From assembly GCA_934277435.1 (NCBI GenBank), contig CAKQUE010000001.1, positions 781 to 64,780 on the forward strand: a DNA stretch of 64,000 nt. The letters are read 5' to 3'. Both the position numbers and the translations under genes were made by a program. The first letter of the stretch is position 1, and the number at the start of each line of letters is the position of its first letter. This DNA comes from an uncultured Alphaproteobacteria bacterium. GTDB lineage: Bacteria > Pseudomonadota > Alphaproteobacteria > RF32 > CAG-239. Positions 2,405 through 47,972 of the stretch are shown here, one piece after another. The notes beneath the pieces were generated by a model that made no database searches, was not told the origin of the DNA, and saw only the letters and a program-made list of their open reading frames with translations.

Positions 2405-3097
2405 TTAATTTTACTTTTGCAAAGCCACATAAATTTCGTGCGCTGATTTTGCTTCTCTGATTTTGCGGCAAGTTTCTTCATCTTTCAAAACTCTTGACAT
2501 CACAGCCAAAGCTTTCAAATGGTCTTCTCCACTTTTTTCTGGTGACAATAAAAACGCTACCAAATCCACCGGATGCGAATCCAAAGATTCATAATCTACG
2601 CCTTTATCCAAACGAGCAAAAACAGCAATAACTTTATCTAAGCCTTCAATTCGGGCGTGAGGGAAAGCAACACCATCGCCATAGCCGGTTGAACCCAAGT
2701 TTTCACGTTCTAATATTGCTTCAAAAACAGAATTTTCATCAATGTTTTCTTTTTCAGCAACAAATTTTGATAACTGTTCAAGCATATTGCGCTTGCTCTC
2801 GGCTTCAACATGAGCCAACACCATGTCTTCTGACAAGATATCTGATATTCCCATTTTTTATCCCTTTTAGTAAAAAATTATTCTGCAGGTTCAACCCAAC
2901 CGATGTTACCATCTTTGCGACGATATACCATACTGATGCGGTTGTTGGCGCTGTTACGGAACATCAAAGCGTTTTCATCGGCCAAATCCATATACATAAC
3001 TGCTTCACCAACAGTGCAAAGTTTGATGTTAGCATCGGTTTCGGCAATGGTTAAAGGAGCAGACTCATCAATGCTCATTTCATCTTCGGTTTCTTTA
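2405..3097. repeat. Direct repeat copy B (ptsN + hpf 3' part)
   Basis: See copy A. Confidence 0.8.
2411..2854 (-). CDS. ptsN: PTS EIIA-Ntr, copy 2
   Basis: 147 aa, 4 substitutions vs copy 1. Confidence 0.85.
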   Translation of the reverse strand: MGISDILSEDMVLAHVEAESKRNMLEQLSKFVAEKENIDENSVFEAILERENLGSTGYGDGVAFPHARIEGLDKVIAVFARLDKGVDYESLDSHPVDLVAFLLSPEKSGEDHLKALAVMSRVLKDEETCRKIREAKSAHEIYVALQK

Positions 3098-41950: not shown

Positions 41951-42379
41951 TTATCTCCTCCGCAATTTTTGTTTAAGTTCCAAAACAGACTTAGTATCTT
42001 TCACGGCTGAAAAAGCAACTTGGTTAATTTGCTGATAGCTTTTGGAATTAACAACCACCAAATTTTTTTTCTGAGCAGTACGTTTCACCGTATCTTGATA
42101 CTGCCGAGTCAACTGATTTTGTTCATCCAAAGCCATTTGGGCTTTATCCTCGAGTAAATCGGCTATATCATTTTCACTATTTATTACCGCGTCAGGATTT
42201 TTGGCCAAGACTTTATCTATCTCTCGTAATTTTTTTATTTTAATTGCTGTAGCGGCGTTAAGTTTATACAAATTAGAAGTTTGCTCTCCCGGAGTTGCCT
42301 GAGCTTCCTCAACATTCATATACGCCAATGCCGTATGACTTAGCAGCATAAATGAGAATATTGATAATAATAACTTCAT
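41951..42379 (-). CDS. Secreted coiled-coil protein (142 aa) between virB2 paralogs and virB3
   Basis: Signal peptide MKLLLSIFSFMLLSHTALA; helical, charged. Confidence 0.35.
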   Translation of the reverse strand: MKLLLSIFSFMLLSHTALAYMNVEEAQATPGEQTSNLYKLNAATAIKIKKLREIDKVLAKNPDAVINSENDIADLLEDKAQMALDEQNQLTRQYQDTVKRTAQKKNLVVVNSKSYQQINQVAFSAVKDTKSVLELKQKLRRR

Positions 42380-42391
42380 TTATCTACCTCA

Positions 42392-42778
42392 TTAAGGTTT
42401 ATTTCCACTTTTCGGTACACTATTTGATTGAGCGTCTCCTGGTGGAGTTGCATTTCCTCCCACGCCGTTTGTCACCACTCCCGCGTCACCACTAACGCGC
42501 AAATAATCATGAATAGCCCCTTTCAACAGTAACGTGATAATAAAAGTACTCATCATGATATAAGCCAAAGTTTTCCAGCTAACTTTATTAAAAATGGCAG
42601 CAACAGAAAACGCCAATAGTCCCAAACCGGCTACCATATAGCCAAATTTGGCCAGACCGGTTCCCATTGCATCACCAAGATCTTTTAGTCTATCAAAAAC
42701 ATCGGCATGCGCCTCTGGTATGGACGCAAAAAGCAAAACAAGAACCATAAAAAAGAGAATATTGTATTTTTTAATCAT
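42392..42778 (-). CDS. virB2: VirB2/TrbC pilin paralog 3
   Basis: Long signal peptide, two hydrophobic helices, conserved …F(N/G)K(V/F)xWKxxA… shared by the three paralogs. Confidence 0.6.
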   Translation of the reverse strand: MIKKYNILFFMVLVLLFASIPEAHADVFDRLKDLGDAMGTGLAKFGYMVAGLGLLAFSVAAIFNKVSWKTLAYIMMSTFIITLLLKGAIHDYLRVSGDAGVVTNGVGGNATPPGDAQSNSVPKSGNKP

Positions 42779-42788
42779 TACTTATCTC

Positions 42789-43151
42789 CTATTTGACACC
42801 AATTAAATCGGCACTTAGCTCATTAGCGCCAATCAAACTTGTGGCGGCCCAAGACATTACAAAAACGCCGATAGAAATAGCGGCAAACCATTTCCAATTG
42901 AAGCTACCGAACATACCAGCAATACAACAGCAGGCGATACCAATTGTTGCCGCAGGAGCTATAATCTTATACAATCCGGCAAAAATACTTTTACCGGCAT
43001 TATTTAAGGCATCAAAAGTTTCAGCTGACGCAGCAAATGCGCATAAGAATACTGAAAGGAACAAACCGATAGTATACTTATTGCTATCTAAAAATTTCAA
43101 CATTCTTATAAACATTTCATCCCTCCAAAATTTTATATTTATTTTTCCCAA
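42789..43151 (-). CDS. virB2: VirB2/TrbC pilin paralog 2
   Basis: As above (…FGSFNWKWFAAISIGVFVMSWA…). Confidence 0.6.
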   Translation of the reverse strand: MGKINIKFWRDEMFIRMLKFLDSNKYTIGLFLSVFLCAFAASAETFDALNNAGKSIFAGLYKIIAPAATIGIACCCIAGMFGSFNWKWFAAISIGVFVMSWAATSLIGANELSADLIGVK

Positions 43152-43175
43152 AGAGGCACTGGGTGCCTCTTTGGA
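43148..43175 (-). terminator. Stem-loop immediately downstream of first virB2 paralog (possible attenuator/partial terminator)
   Basis: ccaaagaggcac-tggg-gtgcctctttgg 12-bp perfect stem, AT-rich flank. Confidence 0.4.
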
Positions 43176-43184
43176 AGGATAAAA

Positions 43185-43538
43185 TTAGATACCAGTATTA
43201 TTACCAAGGGTATCCTCAAATTGGTTACCAACTGCATTATTGGTATTTGCAGCATAGTTAACAATAGCACCAGCGGCGGCCACAACAGCCAAACCAAAAG
43301 CCAAAGCAGCAAACCACGGCCATTTTACTTTACCAAAAATAGCTTGGAACGCCAAGGCCACCAAACCAAAACCACCAATCATAAAAATAACAAGTTTTGC
43401 GTTTGTAAACAAGTTGGCCATTTTTTTGATGGCCGTACCAAACACAGAATCAGCGGCAGAGGCATCTCCGAGCATAACAACTGTAAACAATAATGACATT
43501 GTTACAATGCTCAAAATATTTGATTTTAAAAATTTCAT
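43185..43538 (-). CDS. virB2: VirB2/TrbC pilin paralog 1 (first gene of the vir operon)
   Basis: 117 aa; …FGKVKWPWFAALAFGLAVVAAAGAIV…. Confidence 0.65.
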   Translation of the reverse strand: MKFLKSNILSIVTMSLLFTVVMLGDASAADSVFGTAIKKMANLFTNAKLVIFMIGGFGLVALAFQAIFGKVKWPWFAALAFGLAVVAAAGAIVNYAANTNNAVGNQFEDTLGNNTGI

Positions 43539-43601
43539 TTTAGTTCTCCTTAAGTAGAATTATATACATTTATATCTTAACGCAAATCTGTAAACTTTTC
43601 C

Positions 43602-43650
43602 AGCTTTTTTGTAGTTATGCAACTTATTGTTTTTGCTACAAAAAAAAGCT
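43602..43650. promoter_or_regulatory. Imperfect inverted repeat (AGC-T6-GTAG … CTAC-A8-GCT) in divergent virB2 / pilus-operon promoter region; third half-site TATTTGTAGCATG at 43694-43706
   Basis: Read directly from the 310-bp AT-rich intergenic region between divergent operons. Confidence 0.4.
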
Positions 43651-43848
43651 TGTCACAAAAATTTCACATTTATATACACAGCATATACGCGCTATTTGTA
43701 GCATGAAAAGGTAAATAATTTGATAATAAATAATACGGTGTAACGCTTGTTTTTGTATGGCTTACACTTTGTTTTTTGCTATTAACTCTATTTTAACACA
43801 ATTAGATGTATTCTGCCGATAAGACGGGTGTCCTATATGCCGTAGTGC

Positions 43849-45513
43849 GTGCGGATTCCTGCATTTAAGGGTAATGAAATGCCAAATTTTGGTTGGAAAT
43901 GTTTTATTGGTAGCTTTCTTTTTTCTTTAGCGGCGGTGTTTGCCTCCACTAAAGTTTATCTTTTATTGCCTATTGAGCACCAAAATCCTGTAGAGAAAAC
44001 AGCTTTCGAGGACATTGAAACCAAAAATATAGACTTATTTGCAGACAATGAAGAATCCAATCCGATTGTTGAAAAGTTCAATGAAATAAATAATAAACAG
44101 GCTAAAATAGCTGCTATTCAAGATATTGCTCCGACTACTGACACCCCAAAAAGCGTGCAATCTGATGTTTCTGTGGCAGATAAAGAGGATAAGCCCATTG
44201 AAATATCTTCACTTTCTTCAGATGTACTTTATGCTCCAGATGAAGATATGTCGGAAATTTCTGTCACTGATGCTGATAATTCAGCAAATAAAGATATTGA
44301 CGAAGCGCCAGAAATTTCTGAAAATCAAGAAACAAATCCTGTAAATAGTAACTCTTTTGAGCAAGCAATCTTGGTGGACGATACTGAAGATGAAAGCTTG
44401 CAAATTGCCGACGCCTCCGAAGCCAGACCATTTACTATACCTTTATTGCATAATTTTCAGGTTGCTGCGCAAAAAGTAGAAGTTTCTAATGAAGCTGCAA
44501 ACAGTCAAGTCGCTTTAGCCTCAAACAATGTTTTAATTCAAAATATCGGCACCGAAAACAAAATAGCTGCCGCCAGCGGAGAACCAAATAACTTAGTTCC
44601 AGACACAGCTGAGAACGATTCCGACCCTTGGGAAGTGGCAGCAGTGGGAAACTCTCATATAACAAAAAATAAAATCGATAGTTTCACAGGCGATGGAAAT
44701 AAAACTATGGAGGCTTTAGACCAAGATAAGCTTGCTGAGGCTAAATCGCCTAACGAAAAACAAGTTGCGTATAAAATGGTTAAAAACATTTTAATCCCAA
44801 TTCCAGAGGACATCGCTAATGATGAAAATTTGACGCCGCAGCTTTCTTATTCGGAAGAAAATAAAAAACTAAGCGAAAAATTACAAAAAGAAGGCATCTT
44901 AAATCCACCAACACCAATAAAGGAAGAAATAAAAAACAAAGAAGAAACGACCACAACTCCTGTGCCTTTGACTAACAATCAAAGTGAAAATAAACTATCT
45001 GAACCGAGCCTCACTGATAGTATTGCAGCTTGGTTTTCTTCCAATCCTTCGTCAGATAATAATTCTACAAACAATAAGGCGGATAAAGATAAAGATAAAG
45101 ATAAAAATAAAAAAGAAGAAAGCAGCAGTTCTACTTTTAGCAAACTTTTGGGACTAGGAGCCAAAAAAGACAATAATATTGCTCCCTCAGAACTGAAACT
45201 AGCTTTTCAGCCCGACCGCGCAGAGATTTCTGGACAGACGCTTGATTGGTTAAAAGCTTTTTCTCTGAACGCTGTTAACAATGAAAACGTGTTTGTAGAA
45301 ATACGCATTGACGGTTCAAGCTCTTTTGAGCTACAACAAAAACGTTTGAACCTTCTATATTCAATCTTAGTAAATAATGGTGTTGATTATAATAAAATTA
45401 ACATAATTTTTACGGATAGAGAGCCAAACTCTTTTATTATTAGAAATGTTAGATATGCCAGCGAAGATGATGCTATCAATGTTCATAAAAAGGCTTACAA
45501 TCCATGGTATTAA
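43849..45513 (+). CDS. Acidic bitopic/secreted protein (554 aa), first gene of pilus operon
   Basis: N-terminal hydrophobic segment FIGSFLFSLAAVFA; long acidic region with KDKDKDKDKNK stretch; C-terminal β-rich domain. Confidence 0.4.
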   Translation: MRIPAFKGNEMPNFGWKCFIGSFLFSLAAVFASTKVYLLLPIEHQNPVEKTAFEDIETKNIDLFADNEESNPIVEKFNEINNKQAKIAAIQDIAPTTDTPKSVQSDVSVADKEDKPIEISSLSSDVLYAPDEDMSEISVTDADNSANKDIDEAPEISENQETNPVNSNSFEQAILVDDTEDESLQIADASEARPFTIPLLHNFQVAAQKVEVSNEAANSQVALASNNVLIQNIGTENKIAAASGEPNNLVPDTAENDSDPWEVAAVGNSHITKNKIDSFTGDGNKTMEALDQDKLAEAKSPNEKQVAYKMVKNILIPIPEDIANDENLTPQLSYSEENKKLSEKLQKEGILNPPTPIKEEIKNKEETTTTPVPLTNNQSENKLSEPSLTDSIAAWFSSNPSSDNNSTNNKADKDKDKDKNKKEESSSSTFSKLLGLGAKKDNNIAPSELKLAFQPDRAEISGQTLDWLKAFSLNAVNNENVFVEIRIDGSSSFELQQKRLNLLYSILVNNGVDYNKINIIFTDREPNSFIIRNVRYASEDDAINVHKKAYNPWY

Positions 45514-45559
45514 CTTCTGCTTGCTATTTTAATTTCAACCTGTATTATAGGAAAATACG

Positions 45560-46339
45560 ATGAGATACAACTTTGAAAGAAATATTATGACTAATAAACT
45601 TGCTTTGATGAGTTTATGCTTGAGCTTAGTAATGATAAGCGGCTGCGTAAGCGACAAAAGTTATATGGAAGAAGAATGCGAAAACGGTATTTGCACCAGT
45701 GAAAAAGAGTATCGTGAAGTTTGCACAGAAACTCCTGATGGCTTCAGTGTATGTGAAGACAGTGTTGAACCAGCAGAAAACGTTAACTATACCAGAACTC
45801 AAGCCGATTTCCGCAAATATGGCGAGCGTACTCCTAGAGATCATCGTATTACGCAAGCCGGCGCCGGAAACAATATTTCGGCTGCCGTTCCGCCAAGCAT
45901 AGATGATGAAGTTGTTGATTATGAAGCTGAAGTTATGGAACGCGATACTCCGACAACACCTTGCGCGGATGGTGTGACACCTGCTGGCGCACCTTGCCCT
46001 GCTGCGGCTGTGAATACATCTGCTGCGGAAACAGAAGAGAATACCGAAACAAATTCGGAAGAAGAAGATCAAAATAAAGATTGGTTGGCTGAAGAAGGTC
46101 AAAGCCTGAAAGAATTATTAACAGCATGGAGTGAAGAGTCCGGCTGGAGATTAATTTGGAAAACCAACCGCAACTATACTTTAAACGCAGGCGCTATGTT
46201 CAGAGGTAATTTTGCCGATGTATCGTCTGCCCTTGTACGCGCTTTTGCCCGAGCAAGACCTGCTCCAATAGCCACATTTTATAAAGGTAACCGCGTCTTG
46301 GTAATTGAAACTATGGAGGACGAAAATGCGTATGACTAA
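45560..46339 (+). CDS. Lipoprotein with TcpQ/PilL-like C-terminal domain (secretin partner)
   Basis: Lipobox VMISGC; Cys-rich N-part; C-terminal …RGNFADVSSALVRAFARARP…FYKGNRVLVIE…; overlaps the downstream secretin gene, whose start is taken at 46326. Confidence 0.45.
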   Translation: MRYNFERNIMTNKLALMSLCLSLVMISGCVSDKSYMEEECENGICTSEKEYREVCTETPDGFSVCEDSVEPAENVNYTRTQADFRKYGERTPRDHRITQAGAGNNISAAVPPSIDDEVVDYEAEVMERDTPTTPCADGVTPAGAPCPAAAVNTSAAETEENTETNSEEEDQNKDWLAEEGQSLKELLTAWSEESGWRLIWKTNRNYTLNAGAMFRGNFADVSSALVRAFARARPAPIATFYKGNRVLVIETMEDENAYD

Positions 46340-47972
46340 TTTACTGAAACTTGCCGTTGTTGGAATTTTAGGCGTTACTGTTGCTTGTTCCGTTTCACCG
46401 GAAATTGACGAATCTATCTCGCGTCAAACCGAAAACGCGTTAGATTTGAAGCAAAAAGCCGCCGTTCCGGGCGACCCTATTCCAGATGACGTTGTAAGAG
46501 TTAAAAACGATATTTGGCTTGGCGACACCAGCAGTGTTGAATTTGAAGGTCAGCCTGTTCCGGCTTATTTGGAAACTAAAGATGGTATTACTTTAATTAG
46601 TAACCGCCCGATTACCCTTTATGAAATCGGCTCAATGATTAATAAAATCACCTCTCTTTCGGTACGCTATGCTCCAGAATTAGAAGAAAATGCCGTTGCT
46701 AATGCTGATAAAAACCAACCGGCAATGAAAGACATCGGTGCTCAATGGACAGATTCAACCAAGATGATTGTAAACTACAAAGGTCCTATCAGTGGTTTGC
46801 TTGACGAAGTTTCTAACCGTTTTGGAATTTGGTGGAAGTATGAAAAGAATGAAATCTATTTCTACAAATACATCACTAAAACATTTGTTCTTTATTCTTT
46901 ACCGACAAATCCGTCTCTGAGCGTTTCTGTTGGCGGTTCCGGCGGCTCTTCCAGCATTTCGCAGAGCAGCTCAGTTGACGGTATGGATATGTGGGCAAAT
47001 ATTCAAAGCACAATCAGTTCTATGATTACCTCTGATTCAAACTTGGTAATGGATAAAGGCGCGGGCACAATTACTTTGACTGCCACACCGACTGATATCA
47101 AACGTGTTGCAAAATACATTAATGAACAGAACCAACGCGTTTCAAAACAAGTTGCAATCAGTGTAAAAGTTATTCAAGTTAACATCTCTAATGCTGATAA
47201 ATATAGTCTTGACTTGTCTGCAACATTTAAAGGACGCGGCTCAATAAAAGATGTTACTGGGCACAACACATCAAGTATTGATAATCCTTTGACTGATTTA
47301 ACAATGGGCATTAGTTCAAGCCGTTGGAGTGTTGACGCCGCTATGCAGGCCTTGTCACAAGAAGGAAATACAAACCTTGTGACCAGCGGTACGGTAACAA
47401 CAATGAATAATAAACCGGCTCCAATTCAGGTGGTGAAAACACAAAACTATATTTCACAAATCACCAAAACAAACAGCGGCGATTCAGATACTTATGATAT
47501 TTCTGTAGAAACAGAAGAAATTGAGACAGGTTTCACCATGAGCGTTTTGCCAAGAATCTTGGATCATGGTCGTATCTTGATGTTCTTTAACTTAACTCTA
47601 TCTGATTTGTTATCTCTTGACGCGATAAATGTTTCCGGCGGTTCATCTTCTGACAGTTCATCATCGGATAAGACTGATGACAGTGACAGTGATAGTGACA
47701 GCAATTCCGGCGGTGACAGCGAATTTATTCAAAACCCTGTTATCGAAACCCGCGGCTTTACTCAAGAAGTTGCACTTAAATCTGGTGATACTTTGATTTT
47801 GGCAGGTTATGAACGTGTTGAAGATTCAACAGATAAGAAGGGCGTTGGCTCACCGAAAAACACTCTGTTGGGTGGTTCTCAAGCAGCAACAAGAAACAGA
47901 ACAATTTTAGTTATCATGTTAACTCCGGTTGTTTTGGAATCTCCTCTGTCGCCAGAGTCCAGAATGAACTAA
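46326..47972 (+). CDS. Type IVb-pilus-type secretin (BfpB/TcpC/PilN-like), probable lipoprotein
   Basis: C-terminal secretin domain (…FTMSVLPRILDHGRILM…VIETRGFTQEVALKSGDTLILAGYE…RTILVIMLTPVV); N-terminal signal ending …GVTVAC. Confidence 0.75.
   Translation: MRMTNLLKLAVVGILGVTVACSVSPEIDESISRQTENALDLKQKAAVPGDPIPDDVVRVKNDIWLGDTSSVEFEGQPVPAYLETKDGITLISNRPITLYEIGSMINKITSLSVRYAPELEENAVANADKNQPAMKDIGAQWTDSTKMIVNYKGPISGLLDEVSNRFGIWWKYEKNEIYFYKYITKTFVLYSLPTNPSLSVSVGGSGGSSSISQSSSVDGMDMWANIQSTISSMITSDSNLVMDKGAGTITLTATPTDIKRVAKYINEQNQRVSKQVAISVKVIQVNISNADKYSLDLSATFKGRGSIKDVTGHNTSSIDNPLTDLTMGISSSRWSVDAAMQALSQEGNTNLVTSGTVTTMNNKPAPIQVVKTQNYISQITKTNSGDSDTYDISVETEEIETGFTMSVLPRILDHGRILMFFNLTLSDLLSLDAINVSGGSSSDSSSSDKTDDSDSDSDSNSGGDSEFIQNPVIETRGFTQEVALKSGDTLILAGYERVEDSTDKKGVGSPKNTLLGGSQAATRNRTILVIMLTPVVLESPLSPESRMN

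Follow-up and report, generated by a model that had tools for sequence, protein, structure and literature searches.

A conserved control region between divergent type IV secretion and type IVb pilus operons of an uncultured alphaproteobacterium, with two separable modules and a candidate CtrA-type box

Background

UP elements and phased A-tracts occur upstream of sigma-70 promoters, and the virB promoter of Brucella is controlled by IHF and several other regulators. In Caulobacter, a single near-consensus CtrA site overlaps the -35 region at promoters including that of pilA. The CtrA consensus TTAA-N7-TTAAC is in use, with experimental support, in several alphaproteobacterial orders; studies of Dinoroseobacter, Rickettsia, Sinorhizobium and Brucella have relied on it or verified it (PMC4046655, PMC2877005). 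Here we analyse the intergenic gap between a virB2-led type IV secretion system (T4SS) operon on the minus strand and a type IVb pilus operon on the plus strand, in a stretch of 64,000 nucleotides from an uncultured alphaproteobacterium (contig CAKQUE010000001.1, positions 781 to 64,780; hereafter the window, to which all coordinates refer).

The gap comprises positions 43539-43878 (340 bp, 31% G+C) and is a genuine conserved control region. An earlier note on this DNA had pictured it as an AT-rich divergent control region in which an imperfect palindrome and a further copy of its half-site, TTGTAGC, form an operator shared by both machines. The first part of this picture is borne out by the nucleotide composition and by the divergent arrangement, which is kept in 59 of 80 loci of related species; the shared operator is not. 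Instead, we give about even credence to a back-to-back pair of independent promoter regions, the one on the pilus side with a CtrA-type box. The analysis provides a first cis-regulatory map for this pairing of a T4SS with a type IVb pilus, which is shared by at least 59 species of Alphaproteobacteria that inhabit gut and rumen and are abundant but uncultured.

Conservation of the gap in related species

The exact VirB2 protein is found on metagenome contigs as long as 561 kb. A VirB4 scan yielded 80 species-level loci (VirB4 75-98% identical), all from metagenome-assembled genomes of uncultured gut or rumen Alphaproteobacteria, with about 32-42 usable in each analysis. For footprinting, the gap of the window was aligned with 31 orthologous gaps (32 species). 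The first pilus proteins of these loci are only 28-71% identical, and neutral DNA is therefore expected to be scrambled. Same-species strains (L001-L008) have near-identical gaps (3 single-nucleotide polymorphisms) and are too close to be informative. Mean column conservation of the whole gap is 0.65. In the 59 loci with the divergent arrangement the pilus genes lie upstream of the first virB2-like gene; in L021, L041 and L065 the upstream sequence extends over at least 4 kb and has no pilus genes.

The earlier note ended the region at 43848 (43539-43848, 310 bp). Its right boundary moves to 43878: gene calls on related contigs and the conserved N-terminus place the start of the first pilus gene at ATG 43879 (MPNFGWK) and not at GTG 43849. 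The features of the gap and its borders are listed below, with column conservation in brackets.

43536-43538, minus strand: start codon of virB2 paralogue 1, a 117-amino-acid TrbC/VirB2 pilin and the first gene of the T4SS operon
43544-43549, minus strand: virB2 ribosome-binding site GGAGAA, inside a near-invariant block (about 0.9)
43565-43583, minus strand: block B, with the candidate virB -10 TATAAA (43574-43569) and TTAAC at 43577-43581 (0.80)
43596-43603: block C, TTTTCCAG (CTGGAAAA on the minus strand), at about -35 to -42 from the putative virB start (0.79)
43602-43614: left arm of the palindrome, AGCTTTTTTGTAG, in which only CAG and the T-run (43601-43610) are conserved and GTAG is species-specific (0.61)
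43619-43634: core between the arms, (T/C)AAC-N3-4-TTG(T/A)TTT, conserved
43636-43650: right arm of the palindrome, CTACAAAAAAAAGCT, in which the A-run alone is partly conserved (0.53)
43651-43671: block D, TGT(A/C)ACAAAAA(A/T)TTCA(C/T)AT, a direct repeat with an 11-bp period (0.76)
43693-43705: third half-site copy, TATTTGTAGCATG, which on the minus strand reads TGCTACAAA and resembles an extended -10; only T..TA..CA is kept (0.63)
43706-43727: block E, AAAA(G/A)GTAAATAA(A/T)TTGATAA, the distal end of the virB module
43728-43778: variable spacer between the modules, an insertion site for repeats and extra DNA in relatives
43782-43797, plus strand: block F, a perfect CtrA-type box TTAA-N7-TTAAC, TTAACTCTATTTTAAC (0.93, the highest value in the gap)
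43809-43814, plus strand: candidate pilus -10 TATTCT
43821-43831, plus strand: AAGACGGGTGT, conserved, at the putative start of the pilus leader
43832-43857, plus strand: leader segment of species-variable sequence, 25-27 nt long, forming a short G+C-rich hairpin
43867-43881, plus strand: conserved pilus ribosome-binding site AAGGG (43867-43871) and ATG (43879) of the 544-amino-acid gene

Two separable modules

The gap consists of a virB module of about 190 bp (43539-43727), which holds the palindrome as well as the third half-site copy, and a pilus module of about 100 bp (43779-43878). In relatives the two modules come apart. Blocks A-E are present at the same spacing, and block F is absent, in the three loci without upstream pilus genes (L021, L041, L065) and likewise in four loci on contigs with less upstream sequence (L026, L030, L039, L040). 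L037 and L045 carry 1.6-2 kb of extra DNA between the modules; blocks A-E adjoin virB2 there, and the box lies 85 nt from the pilus start codon. Among relatives, as little as 47 nt or as much as 1.7 kb lies between block E and block F.

Spacing within the virB module is near-constant in the closer clade, with about 62 nt from the virB2 ATG to CCAG, 113-120 nt to block D and 171-177 nt to block E. In the more distant clade (L044 onwards) the blocks lie about 20 nt farther out (block D at 131-138 nt). The distance of block E from block D is fixed at 58-60 nt. The palindrome and the third copy are thus virB-specific, remaining beside virB2 in loci whose pilus operon is missing or lies 1.6-2 kb off, and an operator for both machines is therefore disfavoured.

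The spacer beyond block E contains short repeats in several relatives (L040, L045, L065). In L045, GTCATTGCGAGGAGC...GCGGCAATCTCATGCGGATTGCAC occurs twice, and L040 has two copies of AATTAAAACAACATTGTCATCCCTCGATTTCGCA.

The pilus module and its CtrA-type box

The CtrA-type box lies within the conserved CTATTAACTCTATTTTAACAcAATT. In 28 species a perfect box precedes the pilus start codon by 80-90 nt, with both TTAA half-sites invariant and spacer positions 2-4 variable; the more distant clade has boxes with one mismatch at 103-126 nt. A perfect box arises by chance in shuffles of the gap with a frequency of 0.034 if either strand is allowed and of 0.020 if the plus strand alone is counted.

Downstream of the box, TTGTAT(T/C)(C/T)T (43805-43814; conservation 0.83) encloses the candidate -10. 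From this -10 we infer that the pilus transcript starts at a conserved AAGA, with +1 near 43821, which would place the box at -39 to -24. A consensus scan of the gap revealed no plus-strand sigma-70 promoter, a result to be anticipated where an activator takes the place of the -35 contact. These data point above all to CtrA-type activation of the pilus operon.

On the pilus side, we accordingly picture a promoter that would lack a recognisable -35 hexamer and in which the perfect box would occupy the -35 region; CtrA, or a paralogue with the same specificity, may bind the box and activate transcription from about 43821. On the virB side, a sigma-70-type promoter probably lies near virB2, with its -10 TATAAA at 43574-43569 and +1 near 43562. 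It would be preceded by about 150 bp of conserved sites (the A-tract of the left arm, the core, the second homopolymer tract in the right arm, block D and block E). The palindrome may be mostly a by-product of the T-run and A-run that flank the core, and would serve virB regulation only. This makes for a concrete prediction, namely CtrA-type control of the pilus operon and transcription starts near 43821 and 43562.

The leader hairpin stands at a fixed position, and some of its versions require G-U pairs that are workable on the plus strand only. RNAalifold finds a weak consensus of four pairs, three of them with double changes. Because the segment varies in length between 25 and 27 nt among species, it is not a conserved small open reading frame (ORF) or upstream ORF, and the 20-codon ORF at 43806-43868 was discarded for the same variation. 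A GANTC (CcrM-type methylation) site, GATTC at 43854-43858, lies just 5' of the pilus ribosome-binding site, and by eye roughly every second related leader has GATTC or GAATC near that position; chance alone would yield about one GANTC in 340 bp.

Other sigma factors were considered and set aside. An exact match to the sigma-28 -10 consensus, GCCGATAA at 43815-43822, is kept in the nearest relatives only, others reading GCCGACAA, GCCCCTAA or CAACCACA, and we attribute it to chance. By eye, a sigma-54 reading (CTGGAAA...GC) is missing from the window, and in relatives its GG-to-GC spacing is 8 nt; an EcfG-type GGAAC-N16-17-CGTT has a spacing of 14 and an unconserved CGTT. A second exact TTAA-N7-TTAAC, at 44779-44794 (minus strand), falls within the coding sequence of the first pilus gene; only the closest relatives (L001-L006, L011 and L012) retain it, and it is probably a chance occurrence.

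The virB module and its palindrome

Both arms of the palindrome were found where the earlier note had placed them. They are 21 nt apart and differ by a 2-nt run-length indel. The third copy is likewise present, its start being at 43693 rather than 43694. TTTGTAGCA occurs exactly at 43634-43642 (minus strand) and 43695-43703 (plus strand), with three copies in the window against 1.06 expected.

As a repeated half-site, TTGTAGC does not hold up: of 34 other gaps only 4 contain it, and only three of these (L013, L019, L045) have it where the third copy aligns. Instead, the third copy aligns with TTTTTAACA, TTTATAGCA, TTTCTACCA and similar sequences in relatives. The window has seven copies against 8.4 +/- 3.3 expected, and all five outside the gap fall within ORFs; for these 64 kb, such a background frequency is an outcome that the earlier note itself had held to speak against its proposal.

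The outer part of the palindrome does recur in relatives, as CAG, 0-2 bases, a T-run, about 25-30 nt with the core, an A-run, 0-2 bases and CTG, and the earlier note had thus picked up a genuine, conserved symmetry upstream of virB. The sequences of the arms, by contrast, are no better conserved than the gap on average, and the same is true of the third copy. Complementarity between left and right arms is high even when the arms are taken from different species (5.8 versus 3.1 in a slid control), which indicates that the T-run and A-run themselves are conserved. We interpret the palindrome as mostly a conserved T-tract and A-tract around the core, to which the window appears to add a species-specific extension (GTAG/CTAC, AGC/GCT). 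A striking palindrome in AT-rich intergenic DNA can thus consist mostly of homopolymer runs, and cross-species footprinting redirects attention to other elements.

Read on the virB strand, the left arm presents an A6 tract that would occupy about -43 to -48 relative to the putative start, a position like that of an UP element. With the virB -10 at 43574-43569, positions -78 to -85 would be taken up by the right arm and -89 to -109 by block D. The latter reads TCACA-N6-TCACA in the window, and also as a CtrA box with two mismatches (GTAA-N7-TTCAC). Direct repeats with an 11-bp period are typical of winged-helix (OmpR/CtrA-type) response regulators, and for this reason block D is a candidate site for a protein presumably of this type. 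Position weight matrices of blocks D and F, scanned over the window, detected no additional copy of either. Readings of block D as a Pho box or a CRP site were set aside by eye, the repeat being direct and not inverted and the match only moderate. Conservation within block E peaks in GGTAAATAA (43710-43718; 0.85). A 22-codon minus-strand ORF from 43704 was rejected for its indels and poor conservation.

Alternative explanations

The points that weigh against a pair of independent promoter regions with a CtrA-type box concern the box, the promoters and the palindrome. Box spacer positions 1 and 5-7 (C....ATT) are conserved as well, which CtrA alone does not explain. The chance value of P=0.03 is weakened by the comparison of the blocks, made by eye, with some eight known motifs, and TTAA-N7-TTAAC occurs at background frequency in the window (two copies versus 2.2 expected), so that the argument for the box rests on its position and conservation. 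A tblastn search with a CtrA query detected no response regulator encoded in the window or in 88 loci, and some Alphaproteobacteria (Granulibacter, Pelagibacter) lack CtrA (PMC2877005). Both putative promoters depend on -10-like hexamers, which are easily found in AT-rich DNA. It is conceivable that the box and block D are bound by a different direct-repeat regulator, e.g., another OmpR-family response regulator, as the conserved spacer goes beyond the needs of CtrA, at least 25 species share the two positions at which block D deviates from the CtrA consensus, and CtrA is not universal in the class. However, the box agrees with the CtrA consensus exactly, down to the trailing C, pilus genes are already known to come under CtrA control, and no regulator gene is found near the locus in any species; we hold this alternative to be unlikely. 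The second half of the box also reads as an extended -10 on the minus strand (TGTTAAAAT), where a promoter scan has its sole match in the gap (TCGGCA-18-TAAAAT with an upstream TG, 43819 to 43790), and the deeper clade has TTGAAG 16 nt upstream. Block F would then belong to a distal minus-strand promoter with a virB leader of about 245 nt. This we consider very unlikely: the TG is lost in many species (TTTTAAT, TTTTAAG, TTTTAACG, TTTTAACT) and the TTAA kept, the first half-site ATTAAC is equally conserved yet would sit at the transcription start, and block F accompanies the pilus gene and not virB2 when the modules part or the pilus operon is absent. A single cell-cycle or developmental regulator might also govern both machines, through the full CtrA box on the pilus side and up to five same-orientation (T/G)TAAC elements on the virB side. 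TAAC is found 101 times on the plus strand of the virB module versus 44 on the other strand and about 61 expected, in counts over 42 species that are not independent. The copies cluster at about +40, +82, +115, +160 and +185 from the virB2 ATG, in contexts resembling a CtrA half-site, (A/G/T)TAACACAT; in the window only one position is a true TTAAC (43577-43581). If true, CtrA would time the expression of the T4SS and the type IVb pilus to one cell type, a proposal that we rate as improbable.

The palindrome exceeds chance expectation only marginally. When the gap was shuffled with its dinucleotides preserved, a perfect inverted repeat of at least 10 nt with a loop of 3-40 nt arose in 3.7% of cases (P=0.037), and a gapped stem matching the observed one (13/15 nt) in quality in 18.7% (P=0.187). 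An operator of one dimeric regulator, formed by the palindrome with the third TTGTAGC and co-regulating both operons, can draw on the inverted arms, the two exact TTTGTAGCA copies, the somewhat unusual 10-nt repeat and the widespread divergence of the operons. Its half-site, however, is unconserved in orthologous gaps and at background frequency in the window, nearly a fifth of the shuffles (19%) equal the gapped palindrome, and the element goes with virB2 even when the pilus operon is absent or 2 kb distant, which together leave this proposal highly improbable. Alternatively, virB transcription may be driven from TGCTACAAA (43703-43695, minus strand) and yield a leader of about 150 nt, in which the dyad would fold into an RNA stem-loop that tunes the stability or translation of the virB2 message. 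As read from the alignment, many species have TGnTAnAAA-like hexamers at this position, and the constant span of 51 nt from CAG to block D in the closer clade suggests a constrained unit. The hairpin of the window reaches -14.8 kcal/mol on the plus and -11.2 kcal/mol on the minus strand, and its plus-strand folding z-scores (-3.1 to -3.7) are among the most stable of 33 species, for which the mean z is -0.87 on the plus and -1.46 on the minus, virB-sense strand. Complementarity of the arms is also higher within than between species (6.38 versus 5.79; register-free permutation test with 28 representatives, P=0.003). Against this stand the lack of any RNAalifold consensus pair in an almost gapless alignment of 21 species and a fixed-register pair count that equals that of shuffles (64.0% versus 65.6% paired) without covariation, nearly all pairs being invariant U-A contributed by the homopolymer runs. 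The stems consist almost wholly of A-U pairs, the -10-like hexamer mostly ends in A and not in the canonical T, and Rfam gives nothing at gathering score in the whole window, matches in the gap being at chance level only (E>=0.9). The gap likewise contains no intrinsic terminator, the stem being of A/T and lacking a trailing T-run. Evidence for compensatory pairing is weak and inconsistent, and a stem-loop of this kind appears unlikely.

Genomic neighbourhood

The gene content on both sides of the gap agrees with the operons named in the earlier note. On the minus strand, three tandem TrbC/VirB2 genes (43185-43538, 42789-43151, 42392-42778) are followed by a 142-amino-acid ORF, VirB3 and VirB4, and further down by two VirB8, CagX/VirB9, TrbI/VirB10 and a VirB11-type ATPase. 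The plus strand starts with the unannotated 544-amino-acid gene, followed by genes for a TcpQ/PilL-like protein, a secretin, PilO, a T2SSE ATPase and a T2SSF platform protein; together these make up a type IVb pilus set of the R64-like kind. The locus belongs to the chromosome, flanked by rnpA, yidC and engB at one end and by uvrA and queH at the other, and a search of a plasmid collection with positions 42000-46500 gave no match.

The T4SS (17358-43538, minus strand) is syntenic across the 80 species. Its composition is unusual in the three tandem VirB2 paralogues and the two VirB8. In addition, the TrbI/VirB10 protein (1406 amino acids) is fused to beta-flower repeats, CagX/VirB9 carries a SPOR domain, and the region also encodes a beta-flower/RHS-repeat protein of 1267 amino acids and several large ORFs without a Pfam match (1372, 566, 460 and 411 amino acids). 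Neither a VirD4 coupling protein nor a relaxase turned up among the ORFs scanned. A terminator-like hairpin with a T-poor tail, GGCCATCAAAAAAATGGCC, lies within the coding sequence of virB2 paralogue 1 (43416-43434, minus strand).

Elsewhere in the window, two PTS EIIA-2 genes of 147 amino acids each (1156-1599 and 2411-2854, minus strand) are located about 1255 bp apart and adjoin a hibernation-factor gene. The recurrence of the pattern of overlapping ORFs (1434-1799 versus 2689-3054) suggests a recent tandem duplication.

Comparison with known systems

The pilus module is closest to the CtrA-activated promoters of Caulobacter crescentus (pilA, fliQ and ccrM class), in which a TTAA-N7-TTAAC direct repeat covers the -35 region of a promoter without a -35 hexamer, as the box here would do at the putative promoter of another set of alphaproteobacterial pilus genes. 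The degenerate TAAC-type sites of the same orientation further upstream are likewise reminiscent of Caulobacter pilA (PMC11264516). In contrast to Caulobacter, the pilus here is of the R64-like type IVb and not of the Tad/Cpa kind, and its first gene encodes an uncharacterised 544-amino-acid protein and not the pilin.

On the virB side, the long upstream region with repeated sites, perhaps for an OmpR-family protein, in a divergent gap before a virB2-led operon resembles the virB/VirG system of Agrobacterium. The VirG vir box TNCAATTGHAAY does not occur in the gap at up to one mismatch, and the present system, unlike that of Agrobacterium, is chromosomal and lies between housekeeping genes. 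The AT-rich upstream region of about 200 bp with several conserved sites also recalls the virB promoter of Brucella, although the two share no sequence homology. In particular, the core reads AAACAAnnnnTT(A/G) on the virB strand and differs from the IHF consensus by one mismatch; the gap holds no canonical IHF site WATCAANNNNTTR. The A6 tract of the left arm, together with a second tract about 35 bp further upstream, is similar to an UP element, and lies 2-3 nt off the proximal subsite of Escherichia coli if the virB promoter is placed as proposed above. Taken together, the region is an ordinary regulatory region that employs a familiar kind of element in an unstudied lineage, and the understanding of such systems is unchanged by it.

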